A stretch of 64,000 bases of DNA from positions 11,940 to 75,939 of the forward strand of contig JANLIT010000002.1 in NCBI GenBank assembly GCA_024653945.1. Direction: 5' to 3'. The position numbers and the translations under genes were made by a program. The number at the start of each line of letters is the position of its first letter. Positions within the stretch are counted from its first letter, which is position 1. Source of the stretch: Candidatus Campbellbacteria bacterium. Lineage in GTDB: Bacteria > Patescibacteriota > Minisyncoccia > Phycocordibacterales > EsbW-18. Shown here piece by piece: positions 36,762-55,042 of the stretch. Below the pieces are notes generated by a model. It did not search any database. It saw only the letters and a program-made list of their open reading frames with translations, and was not told where the DNA came from.

Positions 36762-36854
36762 GGTGGATCTCCTTTCTATAGTGTCGCTCGATGTTTGAGC
36801 GACGGGTCGATCCGCCGTTTATTCTCCACACACAGACACACAAGTCAAGCTACG

Positions 36855-36897
36855 AAGAAAACCGCCTGCTGGCGGTTTTCGTGCTTCTACAAAATAT
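36855..36897. repeat. partial palindromic terminator element directly 3' of rplE
   Basis: gaaaaccgcctgctggcggttttcgtgcttctacaaaatatgag; shares the ttcgtgctt..aaaatatgagacgag tail with 31200-31240. Confidence 0.55.
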
Positions 36898-36912
36898 GAG
36901 ACGAGCGGAGAG

Positions 36913-41579: not shown

Positions 41580-41757
41580 CTCCACAGGGCCAGAACCAAG
41601 AACCCCAAAAAGGCGGCAATCCTACAAGGAAGCCGCCTTTACTCATTTCTGAAACATACAGAGTAAGTTTCTTTTTTATATTTAACGTACGGAGTGAACC
41701 CCGCCCTATATACAAACCCCGCCTGCAGTCTTGCGGGCGGGGTTACAACCAAGCAAT

Positions 41758-42150
41758 TCAGTGGACTGTTTCTCCTGACGGGTAAAACATCTTCCAGTAG
41801 TGACGTCCCATACCAGTAATGCAGAAGCATTGAACGAGAGATGTTCTCCCGAAGACTAGCCCAACGAACTCGGGCTGGCGCTGAAGGCTGAACTCCACCA
41901 ACCCATCGGTGCACATTGCCCGAAGTTCGAGCAGTATCTTTTCCTCAGTGGTCACCCTTAGAGCAACCAGTGGGGAGAACGCCCGAACCCTCTTCACCAA
42001 AGACGGGAGGGACATCCAATCGTCGGCAGCAACCAAATGCTTGAGAATTTCCTCTTTGAGAGTCGGGCCACTCTTCTTGCCCCAATCTTCTTCGAGAAGT
42101 TCCAAGGCTCCCCACAACAAGGTCCTTACCCTGTTCCAGTTTGTGGCCAT
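41758..42150 (-). CDS. GC-rich hypothetical protein (130 aa) within the rpsS-rplB insertion
   Basis: SD AAAGGAGACTCGAA before the ATG. Confidence 0.4.
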   Translation of the reverse strand: MATNWNRVRTLLWGALELLEEDWGKKSGPTLKEEILKHLVAADDWMSLPSLVKRVRAFSPLVALRVTTEEKILLELRAMCTDGLVEFSLQRQPEFVGLVFGRTSLVQCFCITGMGRHYWKMFYPSGETVH

Positions 42151-42279
42151 TTCGAGTCTCCTTTTTCTGGTTTAGTCTCGATAATCAAATCTGATAAAAA
42201 TGTAGCCGAAAATAAAGTCACTGTCAAGTTTTGTTGAACATCTGTTGACAATCTTTCAACAACAAACTATACTCATTTC

Positions 42280-43062
42280 ATGTCCCCTACTACAAAACTC
42301 CGTGAACTCGGACTCAATAACAAAGAAATCACTGTGTATCTCGCCTTACTCAAACACGGCCGACGAACACCTGCCGCACTCTCACAACTTACAAAGATAA
42401 ACCGTGCGACGGTATACAGTGTTGCAAGAAATCTACAATCAAAGGGTCTTATTGCTGAGGATATCAGCGGTCATTCTCGTTTCTTTCTACCCCTTCCTCC
42501 CAACAATTTGAATCAACTTATTGATCGCCCAAAACGTGAGCTACAAGAAAAGGAAGATCTTGTTCGCAACACCATTGAAGAGTTATACCAACTCGCTTCA
42601 GAACATGAATATCCTGTTCCAAAAATTCGTTTTGTCCAGGAAGGCGATCTCGAAGATTTTTTGTTTGGTAATACAGTGAGATGGGAGAAGAGTGCTCTGG
42701 AACAAGACGGAACATGGTGGGGCTTTCAAGACCATAGTTTTGTGGAGGTGTATGAAAAGTGGATTCACTGGTCGTGGACAACACTTGAGGGAAAGGATGT
42801 GCGTCACCGCGCAAAAATCATAACGAACACATCGGAAATTGAAAAAAGGTTGCAGCCAAAATATTCAAGAGAAAAGCGCGACATGAGATTTCTCCCTGGA
42901 GAAAAGTTCATGTCCACGATGTGGGTCGTCGGCGAATACGTTATTATGATTGCAACCAAACATCACCCGTTTTATCTCGTCGAGATTCATGATGTGTTAC
43001 TTGCGCACAACATGCGAGAAATGTTTAAAAAACTTTGGGGGCAAACTCGCGAAATTACCTAA
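42280..43062 (+). CDS. TrmB-family winged-helix transcriptional regulator
   Basis: N-terminal HTH LGLNNKEITVYLALLKHGRRTPAALSQLTKINRATVYSVARNLQSKGLI plus a ~170-aa C-terminal domain. Confidence 0.65.
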   Translation: MSPTTKLRELGLNNKEITVYLALLKHGRRTPAALSQLTKINRATVYSVARNLQSKGLIAEDISGHSRFFLPLPPNNLNQLIDRPKRELQEKEDLVRNTIEELYQLASEHEYPVPKIRFVQEGDLEDFLFGNTVRWEKSALEQDGTWWGFQDHSFVEVYEKWIHWSWTTLEGKDVRHRAKIITNTSEIEKRLQPKYSREKRDMRFLPGEKFMSTMWVVGEYVIMIATKHHPFYLVEIHDVLLAHNMREMFKKLWGQTREIT

Positions 43063-43101
43063 CACTAAAACACCTGCGGATATACCGCAGGTGTTTTAGT
43101 G

Positions 43102-43944
43102 TTATTTTTTCTTGCCGACGCGACGTCGTGTGACGATGAGGAAGTTTGAGTACTTCTTTGGCTTGCGTGTCTTGTGTCCCTTTCCGACGTTCTTTCCGTG
43201 TCGTGTGCGCGCTCGGCGGTGTCCACGTCCCTGACGGCCTTCTCCTCCTCCGTGTGGGTGGTCTACTGGGTTCATCGCTGTTCCACGTACCTTTGGTTTC
43301 TTTCCGAGCCATCGATTGCGTCCTGCCTTTCCGAGATTAACGAGTTTATTTTCTGGATTTGAAACTTCTCCGACTGATGCCCATGCGTTTTCAGATACTT
43401 TGCGGGTCTCCGTTGATGGCATTTTCAAAAGTGTATAGCCACCATCATGAGCAATCACTTCAGCAAATACTCCAGCACTTCGTGCAATCTTTGCCCCATC
43501 GTTTGGCTTTCCTTCAATGTTGTACACGAACGTACCAACAGGAATCTTTGCGAGTGGAAGTCGGTTTCCAGGAGTAACGGGTGCTTTTTCAGACGCGAGG
43601 AATGTTGCTCCAACTTTGAGCGACTGTGGTGCAAGAATGTATCGGCGTTCACCATCTGCATAGCAAATAAGTGCAATAAATCCTGAACGGTTTGGATCGT
43701 ACTCAATTGTTTCAACACGTGCAGGAATATCTTTTTTGTTGTATACAAAATCAACATCACGGAATGCTCGTTTGTGACCAGCACCGATACTGATTGTGGT
43801 ACGTCGCCCAAACGCATTGTGTCCAAAACTGCGTCGGAATCCTTTCGTGAGCGCCTTGTGTGGTTTTCCGGCAATCAAAAGCTTGCGGTATTCAATACCG
43901 GTCATTCCACGGCGTCCTGCACTTGTTGGTTTATAGTGTTTCAT
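43102..43944 (-). CDS. rplB: 50S ribosomal protein L2
   Basis: 280 aa; ..GNVLPL..IP.GT.VHNIE..PGKGA. Confidence 0.9.
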   Translation of the reverse strand: MKHYKPTSAGRRGMTGIEYRKLLIAGKPHKALTKGFRRSFGHNAFGRRTTISIGAGHKRAFRDVDFVYNKKDIPARVETIEYDPNRSGFIALICYADGERRYILAPQSLKVGATFLASEKAPVTPGNRLPLAKIPVGTFVYNIEGKPNDGAKIARSAGVFAEVIAHDGGYTLLKMPSTETRKVSENAWASVGEVSNPENKLVNLGKAGRNRWLGKKPKVRGTAMNPVDHPHGGGEGRQGRGHRRARTRHGKNVGKGHKTRKPKKYSNFLIVTRRRVGKKK

Positions 43945-44070
43945 AAAAATAAATCTGAAATTCGAATATCGAAATCCGAAACAATATCTAATTTCTAAAT
44001 TCTAAGGTTTTAAACATTTGAATATTCATATTTTGTGCTTGTTTCGTATTTCGAAATTCGTGCTTCGTAT
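43945..44070. repeat. ~130-bp r-protein leader repeat upstream of rplB
   Basis: aaatctgaaattcgaatatcgaaatccgaaacaatatctaatttctaaattctaaggttttaaacatttgaatattcatattttgtgcttgtttcgtatttcgaaattcgtgcttcgtat. Confidence 0.65.
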
Positions 44071-44532
44071 TTATACTATTTCGATAGTATCTCCCTTTTT
44101 AAGCGTTACGTACGCCTTCTTTCCACCCCCTACGGTTGCCGCTTTTCCACGTCGTGACAGTTTTACCTTTGTTGCAATCTTTGTCACGCGAACGTGTACT
44201 GGTGTGATACCGTACACATCTTTTATCGCGGATGCAATGAGACTCTTGTTTGCATATGACGCGACATCAAAGACATACACATTGTTTTGAGACACGCTCG
44301 TTGCTTTTTCAGTGATGCGTGGGCGCGTGAGAATATCTGCGTTTACTTTTCCAGACGCAATTGTTTGTTTGATTTTCTTTTCAGGTTGCTTTTTCTCTAC
44401 GGCAACAACTTTCTTTGGTGCGTCGTCATGAATATCGTCTTTCACGTGTACTGTGTCGGCAACAGCTTTGCGCGCAAACAAAGAGGTCTTTGCCTTTGCA
44501 CCGCTTGAGTTGTCTTTTTTTCGAAATAACAT
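44071..44532 (-). CDS. rplW: 50S ribosomal protein L23, with ~50-aa Lys-rich N-terminal extension
   Basis: core ..DILTRPRITEKATSV...KAYVTLKKGDTIE; start MLFRKK in the same context as the rplP start MLFPKK. Confidence 0.8.
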   Translation of the reverse strand: MLFRKKDNSSGAKAKTSLFARKAVADTVHVKDDIHDDAPKKVVAVEKKQPEKKIKQTIASGKVNADILTRPRITEKATSVSQNNVYVFDVASYANKSLIASAIKDVYGITPVHVRVTKIATKVKLSRRGKAATVGGGKKAYVTLKKGDTIEIV

Positions 44533-44664
44533 ATATTTTTTAAATTCGAAACCCGAATGTCGAAATCCGAAGCAGGTTCGAAATCATGGGCGTTTGGGTT
44601 TTAAATATTTGAACATTCATATTTTGTGTTTGTTTCGAGTTTCGTGTTTCGATATTCGTGTTTA
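44533..44664. repeat. ~130-bp r-protein leader repeat upstream of rplW
   Basis: tttttaaattcgaaacccgaatgtcgaaatccgaagcaggttcgaaatcatgggcgtttgggttttaaatatttgaacattcatattttgtgtttgtttcgagtttcgtgtttcgatattcgtgtttac. Confidence 0.65.
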
Positions 44665-45423
44665 CTACTGTTTCTTTTCAACCCACCGTTTTACGGCTTC
44701 ATCTGGATTAACCACAATGAGGTATGTGTATGTCATTGCGTCAACGGCATTGAGATTGCGAACCTCTTCAACGGCAACATTTCCTAGGTTTCTAAAGCTT
44801 TTCTTTACCATCTCGTCTGCTGTTGTTGTAAGAATGAGCGCTGCGTTTTGCTTTTTACCAATCATTTTTTCAAAACCTGCAATCTTTGAAAATACACCGA
44901 GAATATCTTTGGCTTCTGCTGTTTTTGGTGTACCAAATGTAATTGAGTCAACAAAGAGAATTTCTTTATCCTTAAGTTTGCGTGAGAGGACGCTGAAAAG
45001 AGCTGATGCGCGCATCTTTTTAGGAATCGTCACACTGTAATCCTTGTCTGAACGTGGGCCGTGAGTCACACCTCCTCCCTTCCATAATGGAGAGCGGATT
45101 GAACCGTGACGTGCGCGTCCTGTTCCTTTTTGTCGCCATGGCTTTTTGCCTCCACCACGAACTTCACCGCGACCTTTTGTGTGAGCACCTGCACGACCTG
45201 CGCGTGCATTGTTCTGCATGCCGAGTACCACTTGGTGCACGAGGTCTGCGTTCCAATTCACACCAAAAATCTGCCCCGGAAGTGTAACGGTGCTTACCTC
45301 TTTTCCTTTGATATCAAAAATAGGAGCTTTCAAATCCTTGCCGTCTTTTGCAACAACAACCTTCTTTGGTTTGAGTGCCTTAGTTGTTTTTACTGTTTTC
45401 TTTTGTGCTGGTTTTTTTTCCAT
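44665..45423 (-). CDS. rplD: 50S ribosomal protein L4, with N-terminal extension
   Basis: 252 aa L4/L1e family. Confidence 0.9.
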   Translation of the reverse strand: MEKKPAQKKTVKTTKALKPKKVVVAKDGKDLKAPIFDIKGKEVSTVTLPGQIFGVNWNADLVHQVVLGMQNNARAGRAGAHTKGRGEVRGGGKKPWRQKGTGRARHGSIRSPLWKGGGVTHGPRSDKDYSVTIPKKMRASALFSVLSRKLKDKEILFVDSITFGTPKTAEAKDILGVFSKIAGFEKMIGKKQNAALILTTTADEMVKKSFRNLGNVAVEEVRNLNAVDAMTYTYLIVVNPDEAVKRWVEKKQ

Positions 45424-45464
45424 TTTGTTTGAATTCTTTGGAAGCTAAGCTTCCAAAAGGAAGC

Positions 45465-46103
45465 TTAGCTTCCCATCACTTCAACAACGGTACCACGTCG
45501 TCCTGGGACTGCTCCGGAAATAAAAATCTGTCCGTTTGCAACGTCAACGAGAAGAACCTTGAGGTTTTTAACCGTGATTCGGTCTCCACCCATACGTCCA
45601 CCCATACGACGTCCTTTCATAACACGCTGAACTCCACCAGCTCCGATTGAACCTGGCTCACGCTCAGAGTGTTTCTGTCCGTGTGTTCGGCGACCTCCTT
45701 TGAAACCGTGTCGCTTCACCACACCCTGAAAACCTTTTGATTTGGATGTACCTGAAACGGTCACTGTGTCGCCAGGAGTAAACACACCCGCATCAATCAT
45801 AGTCCCGAGTGGGAGTTCTGCAGGATCAGAAACCGGAAATTCCATAAATCCCGCAAACATACCCTTTGACTTTTGTGCGTTGTTCACATTTTTTTCTTTT
45901 CGTACGTCATACCCAACCTGCACAGCAGTGTACCCGTCAATATCTTTTGTTTTGATTTGTGTGACAACGGCAGGAGAAACACGAATAAGCGTTGCTGGGT
46001 GCACAACACCGTTGTCATCAAAGACTTGTGTCATTTCTTGTTTTGTTCCGACGAGAAATTTCATGAATTTGTTTTGAATACGAGTGAGCCCTGGCTCGGA
46101 CAC
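45465..46103 (-). CDS. rplC: 50S ribosomal protein L3
   Basis: ..KQEMTQVFDDNG...ATLIRVSPAVVTQIKT; 212 aa. Confidence 0.9.
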   Translation of the reverse strand: MSEPGLTRIQNKFMKFLVGTKQEMTQVFDDNGVVHPATLIRVSPAVVTQIKTKDIDGYTAVQVGYDVRKEKNVNNAQKSKGMFAGFMEFPVSDPAELPLGTMIDAGVFTPGDTVTVSGTSKSKGFQGVVKRHGFKGGRRTHGQKHSEREPGSIGAGGVQRVMKGRRMGGRMGGDRITVKNLKVLLVDVANGQIFISGAVPGRRGTVVEVMGS

Positions 46104-46297
46104 ATCCGAGCTAGGGCTCTAGTGTCCAGAGGTTCCTGTGGGAACATGGCGCATACGTGGGGACTACTATACACGACCACCTTTCAGAGTGCAAGTTCTC
46201 AGTGATAAAATACTTGACAAACATACTTTTCGTAGTACCATACACACCAGAACCTGACCGAAATGAATTCGGCAGAATTGACCTTTGGGAGGATGGG

Positions 46298-46603
46298 ATG
46301 ACGAAAAAACTCAACGGAAGGTTCATGGTGTTGCAGATGCGCCTAAACAAACTGCTCTTCGAGCAGATCAAGCTTAACGCTAGAGTTGCCACGTACGAGA
46401 CACAGAAGGCAACGGTGCGAGGAGAAATCAACTTCCTATTGCGTAGCCAGGGAGCGAGGACTATCTTGGGTGAAAGGGTCTATGCACTGATTGAGTCAAA
46501 CCACGCCGATGCATCTCAACGGGCCAGCGCAAACAATCTCGAAATCATGGGAATCATGATCGAGATGAACAAAGAGATTCCCGCACCCGATTCGAAACTC
46601 TGA
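46298..46603 (+). CDS. small hypothetical protein (~101 aa), cassette gene 1 between rplC and rpsJ
   Basis: SD GGGAGGATGGG before the ATG; followed by terminator cgaccagctagtacagctggtcgttttttt (46613-46650). Confidence 0.45.
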   Translation: MTKKLNGRFMVLQMRLNKLLFEQIKLNARVATYETQKATVRGEINFLLRSQGARTILGERVYALIESNHADASQRASANNLEIMGIMIEMNKEIPAPDSKL

Positions 46604-46767
46604 TGTCCACAACAACGCCTCGACCAGCTAGTACAGCTGGTCGTTTTTTTATCCAGCACTTAAAGTTAAGTGCTGGATTTATTCCGATTTGATTTTTGAT
46701 TGACAAGACACACCACAAAGAATATTGTTGCCCCAGAAATGTATCCCAACTCCAGAAAGGAGCGCGT

Positions 46768-47085
46768 ATGAAATTTGCCATCGCCATAGGTCCAAAAGGT
46801 GGTGGACCTCACAAAGGCTTCATCGCTGAATCTGAGGAAAACATCAAAATACGAACCGCACGTCTTCGAGAACATGGATTCACCATCGTTCCTATCAACG
46901 TTTCCCTTCTACCGTCTGACACTGAGGTCGCAAAGATGTTTGCGGAGAGTCAAATTCACCGGTCTATCGACCCAACTACCACCGAACTCTTTGAGGCCGT
47001 CATGAACTTGGGAATCAAGATTGGCTGGAAAGCTAGGGGACAAGACATCGTCTCCCACATCAGTGGTTGTTGTCGAAAAAAGTAA
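46768..47085 (+). CDS. small hypothetical protein (~105 aa), cassette gene 2; paralogous context to gene 3
   Basis: sigma70-like promoter TTGACA-17-TATTGT (about 46692-46720), SD AGGAGCGCGT, terminator cacgaccagcccaccagctggtcgtttttg (47107-47140). Confidence 0.5.
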   Translation: MKFAIAIGPKGGGPHKGFIAESEENIKIRTARLREHGFTIVPINVSLLPSDTEVAKMFAESQIHRSIDPTTTELFEAVMNLGIKIGWKARGQDIVSHISGCCRKK

Positions 47086-47210
47086 CTTCAACCAAACACG
47101 CTCTCACGACCAGCCCACCAGCTGGTCGTTTTTGTTTTATTGACAAAACAGACCATGAAGAATAGTGTTACCCCAGAATCAATCACGCGTTCCACATAAG
47201 GAGAAAAGTT

Positions 47211-47510
47211 ATGAAGCTCGGCGTCGTACTTCGCTCTGATGGTACAGTTTTCGGAGACATCATGTCTCCAACCGCGGAAGGCTTCGGCAACGCAATGGCT
47301 CGTGTACCAGATGGATTCATGGTCATTGAGGTCTCCGTCGACCTCGATCCAGAACAAGCTTCTGCGGTTCAGAAGCTTGGAAACAACGAGCTCTCAATGG
47401 AAGAGCTCCGACGCATAAGCCATTTGATCCGTCTCGGAATTCAGATGGGAATTGAGGTTCAGAAAGTACTCGCCATCTTCCGCATCCATGATGGCCGTCG
47501 AAAAAAGTAG
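47211..47510 (+). CDS. small hypothetical protein (99 aa), cassette gene 3
   Basis: promoter TTGACAAAACAGACCATGAAGAATAGTGTT, SD AAGGAGAAAAGTT, near-identical terminator (47527-47560). Confidence 0.5.
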   Translation: MKLGVVLRSDGTVFGDIMSPTAEGFGNAMARVPDGFMVIEVSVDLDPEQASAVQKLGNNELSMEELRRISHLIRLGIQMGIEVQKVLAIFRIHDGRRKK

Positions 47511-47639
47511 CGACCGCCGGATGTACCCCACGACCAGCCCACCAGCTGGTCGTTTTTGTCTTAAAACATACGGAGCGAGCCCTAAAGGATTGCTGTTTGT
47601 AGTCAATCACTTCGTTCTTGAACAAACAGGGAACCTCTA

Positions 47640-47758
47640 TTTTTTGAATTTTTTTGTATTTAACATACGAAGTGAGCCTATTACAACAAAGAAACTCTCG
47701 GAGCCCGATGAGGGTGAGAGTGAGTGCGTTTTCAGTAGAAAACGACACGTGTTCTTTG
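47640..47758 (+). repeat. dispersed ~100-nt element (candidate small RNA / cassette-border repeat): ..tttaacatacgaagtgagcc..aaactctcggagcccgatgagggtgagagtgagtgcgttttcagtagaaaacgacacgtg
   Basis: homologous copies at 51588-51700 (opposite strand), 53340-53400 (3' part) and 41670-41712 (5' part). Confidence 0.55.
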
Positions 47759-47780
47759 TTGTAAGTAGGTGAGCGGAGAG

Positions 47781-48149
47781 CTACATCATTTTCACTTCAA
47801 TGTTTACTCCGGATGGGAGTGAAAGAGATGTGAGAGATTCAATAACTTTTGGGGTTGGGTTGAGAATATCAAGTACTCGTTTGTGCACACGCATTTCAAA
47901 TTGTTCTCGTGCATCTTTGTCAATGAATGCTGCACGGTTGACAGTAAAGAGTGAGCGTTCGGTAGGAAGAGGAATTGGACCAACAACAACAGCTTCATAT
48001 TTTACAGCGGTATCCATAATCTGCTTTACGGATTCATCAAGAAGTTTACTTTCATACGCACGAATACGGATGCGCAACTTGTGTGGCGCCTCATCGTGCA
48101 CTTTCTCTTTCTTTGTCTTTCGTGTTGTTTTTGGTTTCAAGGTACTCAT
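47781..48149 (-). CDS. rpsJ: 30S ribosomal protein S10
   Basis: ..KLRIRIRAYESKLLDESVKQIMDTA...VVGPIPLPT. Confidence 0.9.
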   Translation of the reverse strand: MSTLKPKTTRKTKKEKVHDEAPHKLRIRIRAYESKLLDESVKQIMDTAVKYEAVVVGPIPLPTERSLFTVNRAAFIDKDAREQFEMRVHKRVLDILNPTPKVIESLTSLSLPSGVNIEVKMM

Positions 48150-48314
48150 ACGCTACGCGGGGACACTGTATCCCATTGTTTGCCCTTTGTCCAGAACGCA
48201 TTCTAGAGCCCTCAGATACGAGGCGCGAGCGAGGATTCGACTGAGCGATATTGCAATATCGTGAAGAAGAACCGGAGCTCGCAACAAAGTAGATGAGGGC
48301 TATCGAATGCGTTC

Positions 48315-49517
48315 TTACGCTACGATTTTTGTAACCACACCAGCTCCAACAGTCTTACCTCCCTCTCGGATAGCAAAGCGCTGTTGTGCTTCAAGCGCGA
48401 TTGGTGCTGTAAGTTTTACTTTGAATGTAACGGTGTCTCCAGGCATAACCATCTGCACTCCTTCGTTAAGCGTCACTTCTCCCGTCACATCCGTTGTGCG
48501 GATGTAGAACTGAGGCTTGTATCCAGAGATAAATGGTGTGTGGCGACCACCTTCTTCCTTTGTGAGGATGAGCACTTCTGCTTCAAATTCTGTGTGAGGT
48601 GTCACACTACCAGGAGCTGAGATAACTTGTCCGCGCGTAACATCTTCTTTCTTCAAACCACGGATGAGAATACCTGCATTGTCTCCTGCTATACCAGAAT
48701 CAAGTGACTTGTTGAACATTTCAATTCCTGTCACTGTTGATTTTTGTGTTGGCGTAAGACCGACAACTTCAATATCCTGACCAACCTTAATTGTTCCTCG
48801 TTCAATACGGCCGGTTACTACAGTACCGCGTCCTTCAATTGAGAAGATGTCTTCAACTGGCATAAGGAACGGCTTGTCAACTTCACGAACAGGTTCAGGA
48901 ATGTATGAGTCCAGAGTGTTGACGAGTTCAAAGACGCCCTTTGCCCATTCATCATCCATAGATGTTGCAGCAAGCGCTTTTAATCCAGAACCACGAATCA
49001 CTGGTGTCTCTTTTCCGTCAAATCCGTACTTCGTGAGCATTTCGCGTACTTCCTCTTCAACGAGGTCAACAAGGTCCTTGTCAGACACCATGTCAACTTT
49101 GTTCAAGAAAACAATCATTTTTGGAACTCCAACCTGTTTTGCAAGGAGAATGTGTTCTCGTGTTTGTGGCATTGCTCCATCTGAAGCGGCGACAACGAGA
49201 ATTGCGCCGTCCATTTGAGCAGCACCGGTAATCATGTTCTTGATGTAGTCGGCGTGTCCAGGAGCATCAATGTGCGCGTAGTGGCGAAGTGGTGTCCAGT
49301 ACTCGGAGTGGTGGAGCGCAATAGTAATACCGCGTGCCTTTTCTTCCGGTGCACTGTCAATTTTATCAATTGCTTCAACGCGAGCGCCGTATCCCTTGTC
49401 CTTGTTCATGTCCAAGATTTTGAGGATTGCTGCGGTGAGCGTAGTCTTGCCGTGGTCAACGTGTCCGATGGTACCGACGTTAACGTGAGGCTTTGAACGG
49501 TCAAATGTTTCTGCCAT
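48315..49517 (-). CDS. tuf: elongation factor Tu
   Basis: [22 protein letters not shown]; 400 aa. Confidence 0.95.
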
Positions 49518-49630
49518 AAATTTGTTGATTATTAAAAATAACTATTGTTTGTAATGGTTTTGTGCCCCACACGAGGATGCACATGCTGAGAACAAAAACA
49601 CGCGTAGCGCGCATTTTGTAAGGCGTTGCC

Positions 49631-49659
49631 ATTGTACACAACCATTTTGATATCGTCAA
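49631..49659 (-). promoter_or_regulatory. sigma70-type promoter for tuf: TTGACG-17 nt-TACAAT (minus strand), ~105-nt leader
   Basis: read on the reverse complement: ttgacgatatcaaaatggttgtgtacaatggc. Confidence 0.55.
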
Positions 49660-49769
49660 TCCCGTTGCCGCTCTTTACGTGCAAAACTGTGGAGAAACTG
49701 TGGATTAAAAACAAAACGAGCCCGTTCTCCAAAGCGTGCGCATGCACACAATGAAGGAACGGACTCTGC

Positions 49770-49976
49770 TCAAAGAACGACATCCTGTGTCTCATCGGAA
49801 TGGAACTCGGGCACATCTTCCGAGCGCACGCCGTAATCCAACCACGTATCGTGCGTCTCGAGGTATGACGCGCACCACCTCAAGAAAAGCTTTGTGCTGA
49901 TTCCTGCCACCACCATACATCCGATGGTGATGAGGAACGGCATGGGTGAAATGTCTGGCGGAAGCGGGAGGCTCAT
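49770..49976 (-). CDS. GC-rich small membrane protein (68 aa)
   Basis: SD GAGGTGA before the ATG; 10 nt after the upstream gene's stop. Confidence 0.4.
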   Translation of the reverse strand: MSLPLPPDISPMPFLITIGCMVVAGISTKLFLRWCASYLETHDTWLDYGVRSEDVPEFHSDETQDVVL

Positions 49977-49985
49977 GTTGTCACC

Positions 49986-50519
49986 TCACTTCGTGTTGTG
50001 CAGAGGCATTGATGTCGGTGTGGGAAGAAGTGCGGCGGACACTGGCACCCACGACTCCCGCGCCTTCGTCTCCGAGAGCGCGCGAATGAATTCTGGGGAG
50101 AAGGCGAAGGTGTCGTCATCAGCCTCGTGGCACATGAACCGTGTCTCAAAGGCCAAAATGTCAAAACCACGTTGTGCTTCGAGACGCATTTTTCGAGAAT
50201 CCTCAATCAACGTCTCCAGAAGTACGCGCTCGAAACTCTCCCAGGGACTCTTCGTGCCACTCAGCATTTTCTCCAAAAAGAAGTTGACACAGACAACGCT
50301 GTACTCAACCTCGATGTGAGAATGCTTGTGCTCTCGAAAATGCGTACGGATGATATCGGGAATGTGCTTCCGAATATCATCCGTCGACGGGCGAGGTGCC
50401 TGCACGCTCTTCTGCCAGGCGGCGTCACGTTCAGAGGTGCTTGTGATAAGTCCTCTGACAAGAAGTGCACAAAAAGCCACGATGAGAGTCATGATAAGTA
50501 AAGCGAGCGAGAACGGCAT
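49986..50519 (-). CDS. GC-rich membrane-anchored protein (177 aa)
   Basis: N-terminal TM helix, SD GAAAGGGG, promoter-like TTGACA-18-TATTAT upstream (about 50580-50615). Confidence 0.5.
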   Translation of the reverse strand: MPFSLALLIMTLIVAFCALLVRGLITSTSERDAAWQKSVQAPRPSTDDIRKHIPDIIRTHFREHKHSHIEVEYSVVCVNFFLEKMLSGTKSPWESFERVLLETLIEDSRKMRLEAQRGFDILAFETRFMCHEADDDTFAFSPEFIRALSETKARESWVPVSAALLPTPTSMPLHNTK

Positions 50520-50639
50520 GGTGGACCCCTTTCCAGAGAGTTGCGACGTTTAGCGTGAACACAGGTTATTTTCCGAGGTCAATAATACACCAAAGTATAC
50601 ATCTTTGTCAATCCCATTCTTTTGTATCCTGTGGATACG

Positions 50640-50680
50640 CAAAAGCCCCGCCGACTCGTGGTCGGCGGGGCTTTTTAAGC
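50640..50680. terminator. bidirectional terminator aaaagccccgccgactcgtggtcggcggggcttttta
   Basis: hairpin plus T-run. Confidence 0.6.
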
Positions 50681-50704
50681 TTTTGAATCTAGTGTTTCTT
50701 CAGA

Positions 50705-51403
50705 CTAGTCGTGCTTCATCTCGTGTCCAAGGTGCTCAAGGTAACGACCTGCTGCGCTCTGACCGCCGAGGCCGAATGCCAAACCGAAGGCGAGTGAGAG
50801 AGCAATCACTACTCCTGTAAAGAGTGTCTGCAAGAATGCAACACCAATACCGAGTTGTGAAAGTGAAACCAAGAGAGCAAAAATCCAGATTGCCCACTTT
50901 GAAAGTGTGCCGAGGAATCCTGCTGATGCGATGTTTGCGGCCTTTGCTGATGCAACAACAATTCTACGAACCGCTTCAGCAAGTACAACCGACACAAGCA
51001 TGATGAGAACTGCAACAATCACCTGTGGCAAGTATCCCAACACAACATCTCGTAAGAAAGCAGTTACCTGTGTGAGATTCACGATTTCAAGTGATGCAAT
51101 CAAGAAGACAACGATAATGAACCATCGTACAAGCTCCCCAATGAATTTTCCTGAGTTGAGTGAGAAACCTGCTCGTGCAAGTGTTTGTTCCAAGCCAGCA
51201 CCACGAAGTGCGCTGTCCAACTTAATTGACTTAAGAATCTGTTCTACCGCACGCGCAAGAAGCGATGCAATAATCCAACCGATGATAAAAATAATGAGCG
51301 CAACAAGAAGTTTTGGCAGGAATGCAATGACTCCTCCCCACACTGTTGCAAGTGATGTTGCGACAGTGACACCTGTTGTCTGAAGAACTGTGGTTCCTAA
51401 CAT
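50705..51403 (-). CDS. membrane protein built of repeated TM-helix units (TM-helix-repeat / mechanosensitive-channel-like)
   Basis: 232 aa, about 6 TM segments with recurring LxxLxxVxxxL pattern. Confidence 0.5.
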   Translation of the reverse strand: MLGTTVLQTTGVTVATSLATVWGGVIAFLPKLLVALIIFIIGWIIASLLARAVEQILKSIKLDSALRGAGLEQTLARAGFSLNSGKFIGELVRWFIIVVFLIASLEIVNLTQVTAFLRDVVLGYLPQVIVAVLIMLVSVVLAEAVRRIVVASAKAANIASAGFLGTLSKWAIWIFALLVSLSQLGIGVAFLQTLFTGVVIALSLAFGLAFGLGGQSAAGRYLEHLGHEMKHD

Positions 51404-51587
51404 AGTATTGTTAAATTAATTTAAATTATACGTAATAATCAGTTTTTAATGATTTTCAGGATGTGTGCCTGAACACCGTGCCACAAGGGCAGTTTTTCGA
51501 CTTTTAATGTCTTTAATGATAGCACCGCAAGGAATGTCCTTTAATGCCCCTGTGGACAACTCTACGCTCGCCCCGCCCTTCCACAAA

Positions 51588-51700
51588 CACGTGTCGTTTT
51601 CTGCTGAAAACGCACTCACTCTCGCCCTCACGGGCTCCGAGAGTTTTGTGTATAGGGCGGGGCTCGTTCCGTACCACGAATTTTTGTTGCTACAAAAATT
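51588..51700 (-). repeat. dispersed ~100-nt element, copy 2 (orientation opposite to 47640-47758)
   Basis: cgtgtcgttttctgctgaaaacgcactcactctcgccctcacgggctccgagagttttgtgtatagggcggggctcgttccgtaccacg. Confidence 0.55.
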
Positions 51701-51819
51701 CTGTAAAAAGAAAACAATTGACAGATACTGTTTTCAGGCGTACGTTTGCGACAGAACATACGCAGGTTAACGCATGTATCCTCTTGAGCCTTGGCTAGGA
51801 GGAAGAAAGGGTCCATCCA

Positions 51820-52494
51820 ATGAACGCTGGAGAACTGAAGGTATTGGTGGGAAAGTGTTTCGGACAATTTTTCCTCAAAATCTGGACATCCGTGGCTTTG
51901 GTGGCCATCGGCACGGTCATACTCGGCATCGAACTTTTCGTACGTGAGAGTGGGCCGAATCTTTTTCTTTTCCTTATCGGGGTAATACTCATCGTTTGGG
52001 GGCTTGCTCTCTCGATACGGTTCACCAACAAGCTGAGGGGGCTCCGACGGACCCTGGCCGAGTACGAGGAGGCGTGGCGCACACGGATGTGGACGGGAGG
52101 AAATCTCGGTCTTGTGATTTCTTCTCTCGTGGAAAACCGTCTGGTGGATATGTGGCAGCGGGGCGTCTTTGCCGAAGAGCTGGTTAAGACACTTGGTGTC
52201 GGCCCATACCAAGTGGATGCTCTTTTCGAGGTGCCGTTCACGAATGGGGACATTCGCGATGAAGAGGTTGATTTACAGACCGGGTTGGGATGGCTACTCC
52301 ACGGTAAGTATCTCGTTCCGGCGGAGCACGGCTTTGGGGCGTTCGTCTGGTCGGACACGAAGGTGTACGAGAAATTCTTCGCACTTCCAGAGAATAGGAT
52401 GCGCGACGACTTCGACCCGAACAAGGAACCCGAGCTTCTCGACGCCGTGCGCGATGGCCGTGTTTCACTCCCCGGTGGTGTAAAAATCACCTAA
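51820..52494 (+). CDS. GC-rich membrane-anchored hypothetical protein (224 aa)
   Basis: 2 N-terminal TM helices; AGGAGG upstream; terminator cccgag..ctcggg after the stop, plus palindromic ggaagccaggcttcc hairpins. Confidence 0.5.
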   Translation: MNAGELKVLVGKCFGQFFLKIWTSVALVAIGTVILGIELFVRESGPNLFLFLIGVILIVWGLALSIRFTNKLRGLRRTLAEYEEAWRTRMWTGGNLGLVISSLVENRLVDMWQRGVFAEELVKTLGVGPYQVDALFEVPFTNGDIRDEEVDLQTGLGWLLHGKYLVPAEHGFGAFVWSDTKVYEKFFALPENRMRDDFDPNKEPELLDAVRDGRVSLPGGVKIT

Positions 52495-52597
52495 ACTGCA
52501 CTGCTCTTTTCACGAAGAACCCGAGTTCGCTCACGCGACCTCGGGCTTTCTTTTTGGAAGCCAGGCTTCCCCGTTGGAAGCCTGGCTTCCAAAAATG

Positions 52598-53152
52598 CTA
52601 CAACCCCAATTTATTCACTAATTTTCGATGCGGATAGTCAAACACATCGCGCAGGAGTTTGTCATTCATGCTCGTGCGGTAGGAAAAATCTTTTGTTGAA
52701 AATGCAGAGTAGCGAATGTCAGTTCCGCATTCCGCTTCAAGTTGTGTGATTGCTTTTGCTAATGCTTTATCATCAATTCTATCGGCAATAACAAGCACAT
52801 CCGTTCGTGAATCTTCTTCTTCAATAAAAATACCAGACACAACAAGTAATTTGAGTGCACCACATTTTGAAACACGTGACACCACAGGTACATCTGCAAG
52901 CATGTTGCCGAGCATGAGGTGTTTCACACTCATCATGTGTGGAAATTCTGGGTTGAGTAACCATCCACGTGCGCGTTTTTTAAGAAAGCCTGCTGACTTC
53001 AAACGCGCGAGTGGTGTCTTGAGCGACGATGATACAATACTTGTTTTTTCAGCAAGCGTTGCTGTCCCGTAGATACCTTCTGGGTGAAACAGAAAAAAAC
53101 GCATCAGTCGAACCGGCGCACTTCCTCCAAATAATTTTGCGAGTAGATCCAT
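52598..53152 (-). CDS. hypothetical protein, possible winged-helix regulator
   Basis: 184 aa; weak HTH-like segment; low confidence on function. Confidence 0.35.
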   Translation of the reverse strand: MDLLAKLFGGSAPVRLMRFFLFHPEGIYGTATLAEKTSIVSSSLKTPLARLKSAGFLKKRARGWLLNPEFPHMMSVKHLMLGNMLADVPVVSRVSKCGALKLLVVSGIFIEEEDSRTDVLVIADRIDDKALAKAITQLEAECGTDIRYSAFSTKDFSYRTSMNDKLLRDVFDYPHRKLVNKLGL

Positions 53153-53319
53153 CCCGATAGTGTTATATGCCGAATAATATGTAGAACCTTACAATACTCT
53201 TTTCTATTAAAATACCATGATACACGGGTCACTGAAAAAACTATCGGGATCCATACAAGAGTTAGTATACCCTCCTTTTAAAACAAAAACACCCCTTTTG
53301 GGGGTGTTTTTATGCACTT

Positions 53320-53645
53320 TTGTGCTGAAAAAGATTACTTCAAAGTTACATGTCACGCGTCGTTTTCTATTGAAAACGCGCTCGGAGCCTCCTTCGGCAC
53401 AACCTACTGGTTGCCCACCTCAATGAGTACATTGTTATAACCAAGTTACAAATCTACTAATTTGCCTACTGGGTCGCACCGTCGTGCTCCGTCTCAAAGT
53501 GACTCTATTTGAGAGTCACTTTGCCACGAGTTTCTAGCTTCCTCATTGTGCTTCGCACAATTCCGTCGCAAGAACTCTCGGCCCCGTCTCGGTGCTCTCT
53601 CCTGCTTACGCAGGCGCACCTGCGACCGAAAAGTAACTTTGAAAT
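53320..53645 (-). ncRNA. candidate structured non-coding region (~300 nt, ~52% GC) between the rplL stop and an intrinsic terminator (53290-53318)
   Basis: several perfect hairpins (aaagtgactct-attt-gagagtcacttt; gcagg-tgcg-cctgc), bounded by inverted repeats ttacttcaaagttac / gtaactttgaa; contains the 3' module of the dispersed element (cgcgttttcaatagaaaacgacgcg). Confidence 0.25.
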
Positions 53646-54140
53646 TTATTTTAAAGTTACCTTTCCGCCGGCTTCCTCAATCTTCTTCTTCATAACCTCT
53701 GCATCTTCTTTCTTCACTGCCTCCTTGATAACGCCAGGTGCGCCATCAACGAGATCCTTTGCTTCCTTGAGACCAAGACCTGAAACTTCCTTCACAGCCT
53801 TGATAACAGCAATCTTGTTCTCCCCAACTGATGTAAGTTCAACAGTGTACTCGCTCTTTTCATCTGCACCTGCTGCACCTGCTGCAGGAGCTGCTGCGAC
53901 AGCAACTGCTGACACCCCAAACTTTTCCTCAAACACCTTCACGAGTCGGTTCAAATCCAACACGCTCATTTGTTCAATTGCGTCAATAATTTTCTTGAAC
54001 TCGGCTGGAATTGCTACATCCGCAGTTTTCTCTACTGTCTTTGCAACTGGCTTGTCCGCCACAGCTGGGGTTGTTGTTTCCTCTACTGGCTTGTCCGCCG
54101 TAGCATCTGCGGAGGCGGAAGTTTTTGTTTGTTCATCCAT
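53646..54140 (-). CDS. rplL: 50S ribosomal protein L7/L12, with ~35-aa N-terminal extension
   Basis: ..[70 protein letters not shown]; ATG at 54140. Confidence 0.85.
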
Positions 54141-54281
54141 ATGTATTAGGTTAAATTCGAAATTCAAATATCGAAATCCGAGACAATATCTCATTTTCTA
54201 AATCAAAATGTTTTAAACATTTGTACATTAGAATTTTGAATTTGTTTCGTGTTTCGTACTTCGATTTTCGTGCTTATAGTA
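54141..54281. repeat. ~130-bp r-protein leader repeat upstream of rplL
   Basis: ttaaattcgaaattcaaatatcgaaatccgagacaatatctcattttctaaatcaaaatgttttaaacatttgtacattagaattttgaatttgtttcgtgtttcgtacttcgattttcgtgcttat. Confidence 0.6.
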
Positions 54282-54782
54282 TTATTTCTTTTCTGCAATG
54301 GCACCAAGCGCAATAACCAATCGTTGAATTGGCGAGTTAATGACGTTGGCAAACATTCCACGCAATACTGTTTGTGAAGGAATTGTTGCAATCTCAAGCA
54401 TGCGCTCGCGATTCAAAAATTCACCATCAAAAATACCACCGAGAATACCGAGGTGTCCTTCAAATTTTTTCTGGAACGTGTAGATGTTTCGCGCTGGTGC
54501 TGTTGTATCAACTGCGTCTGCACTTTGTGGATATGCGATTGCTACCTCACCATCAAGCGCAGGAATATCTCCCTTTGCTTTTGAACTTGTGAGTGCTTTC
54601 TTGATGAGTGTCTTTTTTGCAACAGTGTATCCAACGTCATTTGCTTTCAACTCTTTTCGAATTTCCATAGCATCACGCACCGTGAGACCGTGGAAGTTAA
54701 CAAAAACAGCCGAGGGAACACGCTTAATGATGTCCTGAAGCTTTTCAAGAATTGTTTCTTTTTGCTTTCGTGTAATTGGCAT
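54282..54782 (-). CDS. rplJ: 50S ribosomal protein L10
   Basis: 166 aa L10 family. Confidence 0.9.
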   Translation of the reverse strand: MPITRKQKETILEKLQDIIKRVPSAVFVNFHGLTVRDAMEIRKELKANDVGYTVAKKTLIKKALTSSKAKGDIPALDGEVAIAYPQSADAVDTTAPARNIYTFQKKFEGHLGILGGIFDGEFLNRERMLEIATIPSQTVLRGMFANVINSPIQRLVIALGAIAEKK

Positions 54783-55042
54783 ATGTTTTTTGTGTTAAAC
54801 AAAAAAACGGCTACAAGTGCCGCCGCTCTAAGAGTGGTCGACCTCAGTAGGACCTCTGACTCTTGTACGTGTGAGTCTGCCTACTTTCTCCGGCCTTGTG
54901 AAAACAACTATACTCAATCCCTCTCATAAATGCAACATCCCATGCGCAAAGCCCCGCTCGAGTACGAGCGGGGCTTTCCTTACTACTTACTACTTCCTAC
55001 TTTCTACTCTTGGCTTTCTACCTACTACTTTCTACTTCCCAC

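Follow-up and report, generated by a model that had tools for sequence, protein, structure and literature searches.

An intergenic hairpin repeat with a conserved three-way junction across Patescibacteria

We describe a family of abundant intergenic hairpins of ~80–125 nt that carry a conserved three-way junction at their tip and occur across the Patescibacteria (CPR). Eight copies or fragments were located by covariance-model and motif scans in the window, the 64-kb stretch of DNA that was analysed. The repeat appears to be specific to Patescibacteria; Rfam 15 contained no family matching it, and no description of it was found in the literature searched. We tentatively favour, at slightly less than even odds, a structured REP/MITE-like repeat that forms a boundary module at transcript 3′ ends, with a junction that would bind protein.

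Copies in the window and beyond

An earlier note on this DNA had proposed a dispersed ~100-nt element with a conserved 7-bp hairpin, present as two full copies in opposite orientation, a 5′ half and a 3′ half. The repeat is real: the window contains the hairpin CGTTTTC-NNNN-GAAAACG at exactly three positions (47727, 51595 and 53361), compared with 0.57 matches expected by chance at two or fewer mismatches, and a 45-nt inverted repeat (96% complementary) links 47709–47753 with 51586–51630. The two full copies, A (plus strand) and B (minus strand), were retained with revised coordinates, and the unit is ~120 nt, with conserved flanks 5′ GUACGGAGCGAGC and 3′ GAGCGGAGAGCUA that extend the helix of both. 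The proposed 5′ half (41670–41712) is a truncated copy, D, in which 41687–41716 matches the 5′ part of B at 87%. The sequence taken as a 3′ half (53340–53400) is instead the P3 hairpin of a structured segment of ~300 nt, copy C. Four further copies, E, F, G and H, lie outside the flagged range; E–G emerged from the kind of covariance-model build and scan that had been suggested, and H from a motif scan. The features are as follows.

47664–47783, plus strand: copy A, full element with P0 (purine-loop helix), P1 and three-way junction; covariance model R1, 68.9 bits, E = 3.8e-18
47694–47721, plus strand: P2 of copy A, ACUCUC-GGA-GCCC-GAUGA-GGGU-GA-GAGU, a tandem G·A, K-turn-like arm identified from sequence, fold and family alignment
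47724–47748, plus strand: P3 of copy A, GUG-CGUUUUC-AGUA-GAAAACG-A-CAC, with 7-bp upper stem, bulged A and lower stem
51557–51675, minus strand: copy B, full element between divergent genes; R1, 59 bits; orthologue at L052:603–732
53336–53646, minus strand: copy C, enlarged structured derivative of ~300 nt; fold z = −7.8; R1, 32.3 bits for 53343–53406; conserved P3 hairpin at 53357–53382
41684–41716, plus strand: copy D, 5′ half only (5′ P0 motif and a P1 5′ arm like that of B, then an unrelated hairpin); 87% match to B
41653–41669, plus strand: solo 5′ motif AAACATACAGAGTAAGT, 30 nt upstream of copy D; sequence and flank-motif scan
47565–47581, plus strand: solo 5′ motif AACATACGGAGCGAGCC followed by a different hairpin, ~85 nt upstream of copy A; sequence and flank-motif scan
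31138–31252, plus strand: copy E, variant 2 (P3 = GAAAACCGCC/GGCGGUUUUC, without the bulged A); R1, 25.9 bits, E = 2.6e-5; last 3 nt complement the SecY stop codon
21429–21542, plus strand: copy F, variant 2; R1, 25 bits; last 3 nt complement the Ndk stop codon
3068–3182, minus strand: copy G, variant 2; R1, 29.8 bits; last 3 nt complement the IF-3 stop codon
36859–36915, plus strand: copy H, 3′ half of variant 2 (P3, P1 3′ arm and 3′ P0 motif); 3′ motif match; last 3 nt complement the L5 stop codon
21404–21426, unstranded: H0 hairpin directly 5′ of copy F; on the minus strand it scores as terminator-like (hairpin and U-rich tail) for Ndk
31108–31133, unstranded: H0 hairpin directly 5′ of copy E; weak R1 hairpin matches at 31107–31133
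3185–3213, unstranded: H0 hairpin directly 5′ of copy G; sequence
51678–51701, unstranded: H0 hairpin directly 5′ of copy B; the L052 orthologue lacks it

Beyond the window, the 21-nt hairpin pattern matched 56 genome loci, 49 of which were CPR or further metagenome-assembled genomes (MAGs) with the CGGAG-hairpin-CGAG arm in the flanks; viral contigs scanned with the same pattern gave no matches. Copies reach a density of up to three per 5–8 kb in other loci. Tandem copies were seen in some loci (L034 and L041).

Structure, covariation and strand

The element is a rod-like hairpin (P0/P1) that ends in a compact three-way junction with arms P2 and P3. In the window genome, the P0 helix is broken by symmetric purine loops, CGAG/CGAG and CGGAG/CGGAG, and is followed by P1, which varies between copies, is 94% Watson-Crick and reaches 40–46 bp (gapless count). 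P2 contains a bulged G and tandem G·A pairs ("CGGAG...CGAG"), and P3 has a fixed geometry of lower stem, bulged A, 7-bp stem and ARNR tetraloop. Copy B forms the same three-way junction as copy A, and their fold z-scores against shuffles are −6.3 and −5.5, respectively.

Covariation was seen in both alignments used. In a MAFFT alignment of 25 copies, 84.7% of cells pair versus 42–56% with slid partners, and double-change cells number 146 versus 53 in shuffles. When 58 copies (Saccharibacteria, Paceibacterota and related MAGs) were aligned by fitting to the model, all 33 modelled pairs showed changes on both sides, with 88.5% pairing (42–53% slid) and a covariation score of 0.554 versus 0.142. 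The P3 lower-stem pair adjoining the hairpin covaries (pair 51–73), and further copies with unrelated P3 sequences keep the 7-bp, bulged-A and ARNR geometry. The window is ~82% identical to MAG CAZVYH01; between B and its L052 orthologue the core is identical, while P1/P0 pairs have been swapped by compensatory substitutions, such as G-C to A-U beside the tandem GA. This covariation supports the earlier reading of the copies as a genuine family with a conserved secondary structure.

P2 resembles the kink-turn, or tandem sheared G·A internal loop, of L7Ae-family binding sites in having G·A and A·G pairs beside a short stem-loop and a 5′-strand G left unpaired. A canonical K-turn (ACUC / UCG / GA ... 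GA / GAGU) can be drawn for the type-1 copies A and B, whereas types 2 and 3 allow only a 1-nt bulge in place of the 3-nt bulge of the K-turn, and variant 2 (E–G) differs from it in placing UA or AA opposite GG.

Folding favours the modelled strand over its reverse complement in 44/54 copies, and the mean advantage is 5.6 kcal/mol. G·U outnumbers A·C on that strand by 11:1 in P3 and 45:20 in P2; the sequences counted are related, and the independent events behind these figures are few. Structural selection acts on the purine-rich strand, which is antisense to the tightly adjoining gene. Many copies have an intrinsic-terminator-like hairpin (H0) directly upstream, so the purine-rich strand may be poorly transcribed; the strand whose transcription in the window is certain is the reverse complement, which forms part of the adjoining gene's 3′ UTR (for example, at copy F). 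We infer that the element acts at the RNA level. Like intrinsic terminators, it places a hairpin at a gene 3′ end, often between convergent genes, but it has no obligatory U tract, its stem extends to 40–46 bp with a branched tip, and the small terminator-like H0 often stands alongside as a separate hairpin. The lack of a U tract after the stem in general excludes classical intrinsic termination; the absence of a U-tail had been reported before and is correct for A, B, E and F, which upholds the view that this is not a simple terminator.

Independent genes for small trans-acting or RNP-forming RNAs, as the earlier note had also suggested, are a doubtful explanation. On that view the long stem would serve in processing: its cleavage, by RNase III for example, would free a 60–80-nt three-way-junction RNA. 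The long perfect stems do resemble rRNA processing stems. A compact, covarying, strand-specific junction with K-turn-like tandem GA and fixed P3 geometry would suit such RNAs, and some copies adjoin tRNA, tmRNA and 23S genes, as expected of co-transcribed stable RNAs. However, no conserved or consistent promoter was seen, the region upstream of B is not conserved in the orthologue, and the terminator-like hairpins that often lie immediately 5′ leave a promoter no room. A trans-acting RNA encoded by approximately 100 near-identical copies in each genome would be unusual, and the variable parts are paired and thus unavailable as guides. The tigRNAs, TIGR stem-loop RNAs of CPR bacteria, likewise have unit-specific palindromic stems around a conserved centre and some tandem copies, but they need two unpaired variable ~9-nt spacers bounded by box C/D motifs, and their arrays lie beside a tas (Nop-domain) gene (PMC12045711; bioRxiv 10.64898/2026.09.09.750476). 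The element instead has a fully paired, nearly invariant centre, dispersed copies and no spacers.

It is highly improbable that the junction is a new self-cleaving ribozyme or another RNA-processing signal punctuating polycistronic transcripts. The compact junction, fixed helix lengths and multi-copy, intergenic occurrence beside tRNA, tmRNA and rRNA genes are compatible with one, and the repeat setting matches that of known small ribozymes, which are often carried on repeats. Conserved unpaired nucleotides are very few, however; the hammerhead core CUGAUGA...GAAA is absent, no Rfam ribozyme matches even at E ≤ 10, and orientation relative to transcripts is inconsistent.

Placement at gene ends

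On its 3′ side the element usually abuts a convergent gene's stop codon. Five copies in the window have an intact 3′ end and face a gene (S10, L5, SecY, IF-3 and Ndk), and each of them stops exactly on the stop codon of that gene; the last three nucleotides of copy A (CTA, 47781–47783), for instance, are the complement of the S10 stop codon (ORF 47781–48149, minus strand). Across the loci, where ORFs were called by a crude script and those of at least 150 aa were counted, the 3′ neighbour is a convergent gene in 24/39 cases, and its stop codon falls −22 to +15 nt from the stem edge in 18 of the 24. Same-strand stop codons are equally near the 5′ edge in only 4/14 (18 versus 4, binomial p = 0.002). 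Thirteen copies follow a same-strand tRNA gene at a distance of 0–75 nt, and in other phyla the element follows tRNA genes. The 50 nt upstream are more structured than the 50 nt downstream (Wilcoxon p = 0.01). Both orientations are found within co-directional gene pairs, a pattern that would suit a selfish repeat no less than a functional one.

In line with the earlier note, elements occur where other genes break ribosomal-protein operons, and B lies between divergent genes. Folded-strand recombination sites like integron attC, with cassettes inserted into those operons, are a very unlikely explanation. The resemblance to attC lies in structure that is better preserved than sequence, in a folded strand antisense to the adjacent ORF, in a site beginning at or overlapping the stop codon of that ORF and in a length of 60–140 nt; elements border non-ribosomal inserts after S10, L5 and SecY and inside the L2–S19 insert, and indels separate the region around B and C from the relative. 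Against this, the R″/R′ core sites (RYYYAAC / GTTRRRY) are absent from the window copies, which also undercuts the recombination sites proposed earlier. Conservation lies at the apex rather than the base, the element adjoins core housekeeping genes (SecA, SecY, GatB, RecG, RNR and IF-3) and not cassettes, many copies follow tRNA genes, and no integron integrase was seen.

Flank-derived stems, spread and possible function

In five tRNA-linked copies (L014, L026, L043, L055 and L004), the P1 3′ arm plus flank is an exact 12–20-nt copy of the upstream tRNA 3′ end, and an inverted copy of that segment forms the other stem arm. In copy C, which is absent from the syntenic relative L052, the final 15 nt of the L7/L12 gene recur once directly and once inverted, and these two copies make up the closing stem. 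Beyond the tRNA-linked copies and C, a general scripted test for this X-X′-core-X pattern gave a negative result. Integrative elements likewise leave direct repeats of tRNA 3′ ends (genomic-island att sites), and in the tRNA-linked copies the 12–20-nt exact copy (T loop to acceptor end) lies at the far side of the inserted DNA, but here only ~110–150 bp separate the repeats, there is no integrase, the inverted copy makes a stem arm, and the core is the same beside different tRNAs and beside protein genes.

These features bear on whether the repeat is selfish, non-autonomous mobile DNA (MITE-like or a mini integrative element) with no cellular role that inserts at gene 3′ ends, its core folding as a single-stranded DNA or RNA intermediate for a candidate transposase, recombinase or reverse transcriptase. 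We consider this rather unlikely, although several observations fit it. Within one genome, five CAYQFA01 copies have nearly identical cores with unrelated outer stems, and elsewhere stems are shared as well as cores (E/F/G in the window; L017/L021/L038). Truncation is seen in D and H. C occurs in the window, flanked by a 15-nt direct repeat of its target, but not in the relative, and tRNA-3′-end direct repeats flank tRNA-linked copies, as with integrative elements. Most window copies have a TA dinucleotide at both ends, P1 is almost purely Watson-Crick, as in DNA palindromes, and both orientations occur inside operons. The MITE suggested earlier gains from the many copies, the truncations and the single presence/absence difference, but the two ends do not form an inverted repeat, and the long stem varies by copy. 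The conserved base before the 5′ TA speaks against simple TA duplication. The restricted X-X′-core-X pattern, the lack of an associated enzyme gene and the viral contigs without any copy also argue against selfish DNA, and conservation of the junction across phyla, together with an orthologous copy kept at ~82% genome identity, suggests long-term purifying selection rather than recent spread.

The closest parallels are the REP/BIME, ERIC (IRU) and Correia/NEMIS repeats of proteobacteria, which share with the element many intergenic-only copies (dozens to hundreds) usually near gene 3′ ends, imperfect palindromes in either orientation, truncations, and copies present in one relative but absent from another. 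TA flanks the ERIC and Correia elements, which affect mRNA stability or processing when transcribed. Those repeats are genus- or family-restricted and conserved in the stem or terminal inverted repeats; the element, in contrast, has an apical junction common to phyla, a stem that can vary freely and derives in part from copies of flanking genes, and termini that are purine-purine loops rather than inverted repeats. We know of no RAYT or transposase for it.

In the boundary-module reading that we prefer, the element would act where closely spaced transcription units end. Its 3′ edge usually meets the stop codon of the opposite-strand gene (or a tRNA 3′ end), and a small, often terminator-like H0 hairpin flanks it on the 5′ side. 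The long stem could provide a stable 3′-end or processing structure for transcripts from either side, and the conserved purine-rich junction could be the handle for a putative trans-acting protein. Copies would spread and decay in the manner of REP/ERIC/Correia-type repeats, and flanking DNA seems to be the source from which the stem is remade and extended, perhaps by quasi-palindrome template switching. The family is far wider than the window alone shows and spans Patescibacteria phyla.

The hairpin element, its copies, and its fold

Three sites in the window, 47727, 51595, and 53361, carry the hairpin CGTTTTC-N4-GAAAACG, each with a perfect stem, against a chance expectation of 0.57 matches (two or fewer mismatches allowed). 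A 45-nt inverted repeat (47709–47753 versus 51586–51630) is 96% complementary, and copies A and B, on the forward and reverse strands, respectively, fold into the same three-way junction (z = −5.5 and −6.3 compared with dinucleotide shuffles). On this evidence, an earlier note was correct in describing a repeated hairpin element with two full copies in opposite orientation, and three adjustments are needed. The unit is longer than the proposed ~100 nt once the conserved flanks (5′ GUACGGAGCGAGC, 3′ GAGCGGAGAGCUA) are included; what had been called a 3′ half at 53340–53400 is rather the P3 hairpin of a larger structured segment (copy C); and further copies (E, F, G, and H) lie outside the 41670–53400 range, located by motif scans or by R1, a covariance model built from an alignment of 25 copies as the same note had proposed. 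A 5′ half suspected near 41670–41712 corresponds to copy D, within which 41687–41716 matches the 5′ part of copy B at 87%. Run unfiltered, R1 recovers A, B, C, E, F, and G. The copies are many, some are truncated, and their density in the window is eight copies or fragments per 64 kb.

Copies of the element in the window
47664–47783, forward strand: copy A, full, type 1 (R1 68.9 bits)
51557–51675, reverse strand: copy B, full, type 1 (R1 59 bits)
53336–53646: copy C, P3 hairpin within a ~300-nt structured segment (R1 32.3 bits; fold z = −7.8)
3068–3182, reverse strand: copy G, full, variant 2 (R1 29.8 bits)
31138–31252, forward strand: copy E, full, variant 2 (R1 25.9 bits)
21429–21542, forward strand: copy F, full, variant 2 (R1 25.0 bits)
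41684–41716: copy D, 5′ half
36859–36915: copy H, 3′ half, found by motif scan
41653 and 47565: two solo 5′ motifs, found by motif scan

The family plan comprises three helices. P1 is variable in sequence (94% Watson-Crick pairs, 2.7% G·U) and reaches 40–46 bp by a gapless count. P2 has a 3–6-bp stem, an unpaired G, tandem G·A/A·G, and a 4–5-bp hairpin with a GNNG or GNRA loop, and P3 is capped by an ARNR tetraloop on a 7-bp upper stem, below which come a bulged A in the 3′ strand and a 3–4-bp lower stem. Variant 2 copies (E, F, and G) have GAAAACCGCC/GGCGGUUUUC as P3, and the bulged A is missing. Further copies found with R1 in loci of other genomes carry unrelated P3 sequences (GCGCCCGGCC..., GGGCACUGCA..., GGAAAAUUUUC...) and retain the geometry of 7 bp, bulged A, and ARNR loop.

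In a plain MAFFT alignment of the 25 copies, 84.7% of cells were paired compared with 42–56% when partners were slid by 1–3 columns, and double-change cells numbered 146 versus 53 in shuffles. A model-fitted alignment of 58 copies gave changes on both sides in 33/33 pairs and 88.5% pairing (42–53% when slid), but it is biased towards the model, and the MAFFT result is therefore the cleaner test of covariation. Pairing read directly off the sequences shows that the flank motifs are not independent signals: together they form a helix, P0, that continues P1 via symmetric purine loops (CGGAG faces CGGAG, and CGAG faces CGAG with tandem G·A). Covariation is seen in the closing pairs of P0: copy A has U·G and G·U, copy B has C-G and G-C, and L052, a syntenic locus described below, has A-U where B has G-C. 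Copy F has AA in place of both GA dinucleotides. MAFFT put variants 1 and 2 out of structural register, and a joint model of both with P0 was abandoned.

Of 54 copies, 44 give a better fold on the modelled, purine-rich strand than on its reverse complement (mean difference 5.6 kcal/mol). On this strand, G·U outnumbers A·C 11:1 in P3 and 45:20 in P2, and inspection of A, F, G, and L052 gave seven G·U pairs in total and zero A·C, although neither set of counts is phylogenetically independent. On the opposite strand, the tandem G·A loops and purine-rich tetraloops would turn into tandem pyrimidine mismatches; P1 has no power to discriminate the strands. These data point to structural selection on the purine-rich strand.

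Placement at gene and tRNA 3′ ends and the origin of the stems

Placement was analyzed with script-called ORFs of at least 150 aa. The 3′ neighbor of the element was a convergent gene in 24 of 39 cases, and the stop codon of that gene lay −22 to +15 nt from the outer edge of P1 in 18 of the 24; of 14 same-strand stop codons, only 4 came equally near the 5′ edge (18 versus 4, binomial p = 0.002). The elements thus sit at gene 3′ ends in a polar manner. The adjoining genes are S10, L5, SecY, IF-3, and Ndk in the window and unrelated housekeeping genes across the loci, SecA, GatB, RecG, ribonucleotide reductase, PBP1A, thioredoxin reductase, L25, SSB, and CorA among them. For A, E, F, G, and H in the window this junction is exact: each ends in the 3-nt complement (CUA or UUA) of the host gene's stop codon. 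Among the many Paceibacterota and related MAG copies, a same-strand tRNA gene lies 0–75 nt upstream of the element in 13 loci, and other copies face a convergent tRNA 3′ end or sit beside a tmRNA or 23S gene. Replication strand does not explain the orientation, as copies face both ways and GC skew is uniform across the window.

Compared with the 50 nt downstream of the element, the 50 nt upstream are the more structured (Wilcoxon p = 0.01); they hold a small hairpin, H0, in many cases accompanied by a U tract. H0 of copy F is scored as a terminator of Ndk, which lies on the opposite strand, so between stop codon and terminator the Ndk mRNA must include the element's reverse complement. The strand that is certain to be transcribed beside the host gene is thus the opposite of the purine-rich one, and the purine-rich strand is often shielded from upstream transcription by a terminator-like hairpin. 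A folded purine-rich strand would suit independent small-RNA genes, but a sigma-70 promoter scan upstream of the copies stayed at chance level and found no consistent site, and for such reasons we regard small-RNA genes as distinctly unlikely. The paradox of a selected strand that differs from the transcribed one keeps alive another rival, a selfish element whose core would fold as ssDNA or as an RNA intermediate; we consider this improbable, though less so than small-RNA genes.

Stems derived from the flanks were seen in several copies. In five tRNA-linked loci, the 3′ arm of P1 and its flank are an exact copy of the upstream tRNA's 3′ end, from T loop to acceptor end (20 nt in L014, 19 in L043, 17 in L026, 14 in L055, and 12 in L004); the inverted complement of that segment makes up the 5′ arm. 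The non-palindromic TTCAAAT/ATTTGAA of L014 establishes that the 5′ arm is inverted, not direct. At copy C, the L7/L12 gene ends in GTAACTTTAAAATAA with an inverted copy immediately after, and the stem is closed ~300 nt on by a direct copy, GTAACTTTGAAGTAA, that still reads V-T-L-K-stop; L052 lacks the element and has one copy only of this L7/L12 end sequence. At L024, the last ~30 nt of gatB with the stop codon form the 3′ arm, and an inverted copy of that sequence forms the 5′ arm. Five copies in one Saccharibacteria MAG (CAYQFA01) have almost identical cores on perfect but unrelated 35–45-bp stems. From these sequences we infer that stems are perfected and lengthened from neighboring DNA. 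Quasi-palindrome template switching, a known mutational mechanism in bacteria, could be the means, and two successive events might leave a tRNA followed in order by H0, an inverted copy, the core, and a direct copy. A script that looked for "flank, inverted flank, core, flank" in general gave a negative result, with poor delimitation of the arms; the pattern is documented only for copy C and the five tRNA-linked copies.

L052 belongs to an uncultured Candidatus Saccharibacteria MAG (CAZVYH01) and is syntenic with 50952–54913 of the window at ~82% nucleotide identity; from this synteny the window was assigned to a Saccharibacteria (TM7) chromosome. Copy B is kept there and copy C is absent; that is, one orthologue is retained with compensatory changes and one indel separates the relatives. 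L052 also has an extra ~920-nt segment (L052:2222–3146), a cassette-like indel beside the L7/L12 gene bounded by two copies of a terminator that is single in the window (53276–53330). In copy C, P2 is replaced by a strongly structured insert of ~250 nt (53400–53640, reverse strand) with several perfect hairpins, e.g., 53487–53531; the insert matched no Rfam family and is absent from L052.

Pfam identifies S10, L3, L4, L23, L2, S19, L22, S3, L5, SecY, EF-Tu, L10, and L7/L12 on the reverse strand of the window, together with IF-3 and Ndk. The S10 protein had no exact match on record. A phage origin, raised by a T7-like phage promoter motif, was rejected: megablast against phages was empty, and Pfam describes a bacterial ribosomal-protein region. 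The ribosomal-protein operons are broken up by non-ribosomal genes. A TrmB-like regulator (42280–43062, forward) separates L2 from S19, an uncharacterized 282-aa gene (35913–36761, reverse) follows L5, and MscS-like (50705–51403, reverse) and NfeD-like (51820–52494, forward) membrane genes lie between tuf and L7/L12. Between S10 and L3, adjacent in the usual gene order, is a block of three tandem small paralogous ORFs (46157–47560, forward; 148, 129, and 99 aa), none with a Pfam match and each followed by the same terminator, CACGACCAGCCCACCAGCTGGTCGTTTTT. A ~130-nt AT-rich repeat with periodic TTCGAAAT-like units (43950–44080, 44541–44671, and 54152–54283; 67–78% identical) fills the L23-L2, L4-L23, and L10-L7/L12 intergenic spaces within the ribosomal-protein operons. 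Long N-terminal extensions precede the Pfam domains of several ribosomal proteins: L23 (153 aa in all; 44071–44532), L4 (252 aa in all; 44665–45423), and L7/L12 (182 aa in all; 53646–54194). Two large reverse-strand ORFs near L10 (55043–58696 and 58925–61369) are not RpoB/RpoC; PKD and SpaA-like prealbumin-fold domains are all that they show, pointing to surface proteins. Perfect 20-bp palindromes with A/T runs on either side, between convergent genes (43060–43104 and 52551–52595), look like ordinary bidirectional terminators, so classical terminators would also be in use in this genome.

Distribution and comparison with known systems

An exact-pattern scan for GCGTTTTCANNAGAAAACGAC with one genome per species returned 56 loci. 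Saccharibacteria, the Paceibacterota/Parcubacteria group, or unnamed MAGs account for 49, often with several loci per genome, and all 49 have the CGGAG-hairpin-CGAG arm in their flanks; the seven from other phyla lack the arm and look like chance matches. The structured, covarying junction is shared by different phyla. Head-to-tail tandem copies were seen in two MAGs (L034:1–160, period ~86 nt, and L041:4780–4950). The hairpin pattern had no match in viral contigs, and a metagenome scan with the variant 2 hairpin returned solely an unrelated palindromic terminator of another organism. Rfam 15 covariance models gave no match in the whole window at gathering thresholds and only chance-level matches in a relaxed search, around A (E ≤ 10) and around C (E ≤ 1); in 17 loci they found tRNA, tmRNA, and 23S only, none overlapping an element. 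The literature searched does not describe the element.

An intrinsic terminator is a G+C-rich hairpin directly followed by a U run. The earlier note had described the element as lacking a U-tail; no U run follows the stems of A, B, E, and F, and those after G and H are the antisense of terminal Lys codons. Within 20900–37100, only H0 of copy F, and none of the elements, was called terminator-like. Without a U tract, the element is not an intrinsic terminator.

MITEs are non-autonomous DNA transposons recognized by terminal inverted repeats common to all copies, target-site duplication, and many copies with presence/absence differences. Eight copies or fragments in 64 kb and the absence of C, with retention of B, in L052 agree with the last of these. 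However, the element termini (5′ CGGAGCGAG, 3′ GAGCGGAGAGC) are not reverse complements, and the inner stem P1 varies among copies with identical cores. A, E, F, G, and L001 have TA at each end, and B and L052 have TG at the 3′ end; the base preceding the 5′ TA is conserved among copies. Copy C is bounded by a 15-nt direct repeat. REP/BIME sequences are ~35-nt imperfect palindromes with a conserved 5′ GTAG head in genomes that encode a RAYT transposase, whereas the element is 80–125 nt, branched, and by inspection without a GTAG head. It appears to act most like REP, ERIC, and Correia repeats, yet it would fall outside those families: no terminal inverted repeats are common to its copies, a GTAG head is lacking, and it is the apex, not the stem, that is conserved.

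tRNA-targeting integrative elements consist of an insert that carries an integrase gene and is bounded by a direct repeat of the tRNA 3′ end. The five tRNA-linked loci have such a repeat, but only ~110–150 bp lie between its copies, which leaves no place for an integrase. The folded strand of an integron attC site carries the core sites RYYYAAC (R″) and GTTRRRY (R′) at its base. Only A and D are preceded by ATTTAAC, and GTTRRRY is at the 3′ end of no copy; with the core sites absent, the element is not an attC site, and even attC-like sites folded as single strands are very unlikely.

A kink-turn has a C stem, a 3-nt bulge, tandem sheared G·A/A·G, and an NC stem. P2 resembles this, type 1 copies fitting the 3-nt bulge pattern (ACUC/UCG/GA...GA/GAGU), although sheared G·A geometry is not readable from sequence and types 2 and 3 fit with a 1-nt bulge only. 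The hammerhead core is CUGAUGA ... GAAA ... UH at a three-way junction. Despite its junction, the element has its tandem GA inside arm P2, with no CUGA uridine turn, no GAAA, and no Rfam match, and the core motifs of other small ribozymes are absent; a ribozyme or processing signal is the least probable of the rivals.

tigRNAs have two variable, unpaired ~9-nt spacers with box C/D bounds inside a stem, and their units form an array beside a tas (Nop-domain) gene (PMC12045711; bioRxiv 10.64898/2026.09.09.750476). The center of the element is fully paired and nearly invariant, its copies are dispersed, and none of the ~30 window ORFs scanned with Pfam has a Nop domain. Lacking unpaired variable spacers, it is not a TIGR guide.

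Possible roles and meaning for Patescibacteria

The best single account, which we hold tentatively, is a REP/ERIC/Correia-like intergenic repeat with a role at transcript boundaries, in which the three-way junction would be the handle for a protein. It is possible, but on balance doubtful, that the element represents a class of structured nucleic-acid module new to description, present throughout Patescibacteria at ~100 copies per ~1-Mb genome, with either of two readings. In one, the junction would recruit a protein that stops or processes transcription without a U tract; if true, gene and tRNA 3′ ends would be shielded from antisense read-through in extremely compact genomes. In the other, it would be a new kind of mobile element that settles at the 3′ ends of transcripts and uses the last 12–50 nt of the neighboring gene to rebuild its stem, which would account for both the perfect flank-derived stems and the stop-codon junctions. 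We rate the novelty as lying in a hairpin repeat that has a phylum-spanning three-way-junction core and flank-templated stems.

Patescibacteria (CPR) make up a large share of bacterial diversity, and, to our knowledge, almost nothing is known of their transcription organization or non-coding RNAs; what makes the element of real interest is its pervasiveness in this major, poorly understood lineage. The covariance model can be used to annotate a sizeable share of CPR intergenic DNA, and the junction is a well-defined RNA bait for a protein partner in cultivable Saccharibacteria. The flank-copied stems are a clean natural case of palindrome growth from adjacent sequence, and the element accounts for local breaks in otherwise conserved ribosomal-protein operons. 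It lies every few kilobases, on the stop codons of core genes (S10, L5, SecY, IF-3, SecA, and others) and beside tRNAs, and is either a general part of the gene-expression machinery of Patescibacteria or their dominant genomic parasite.
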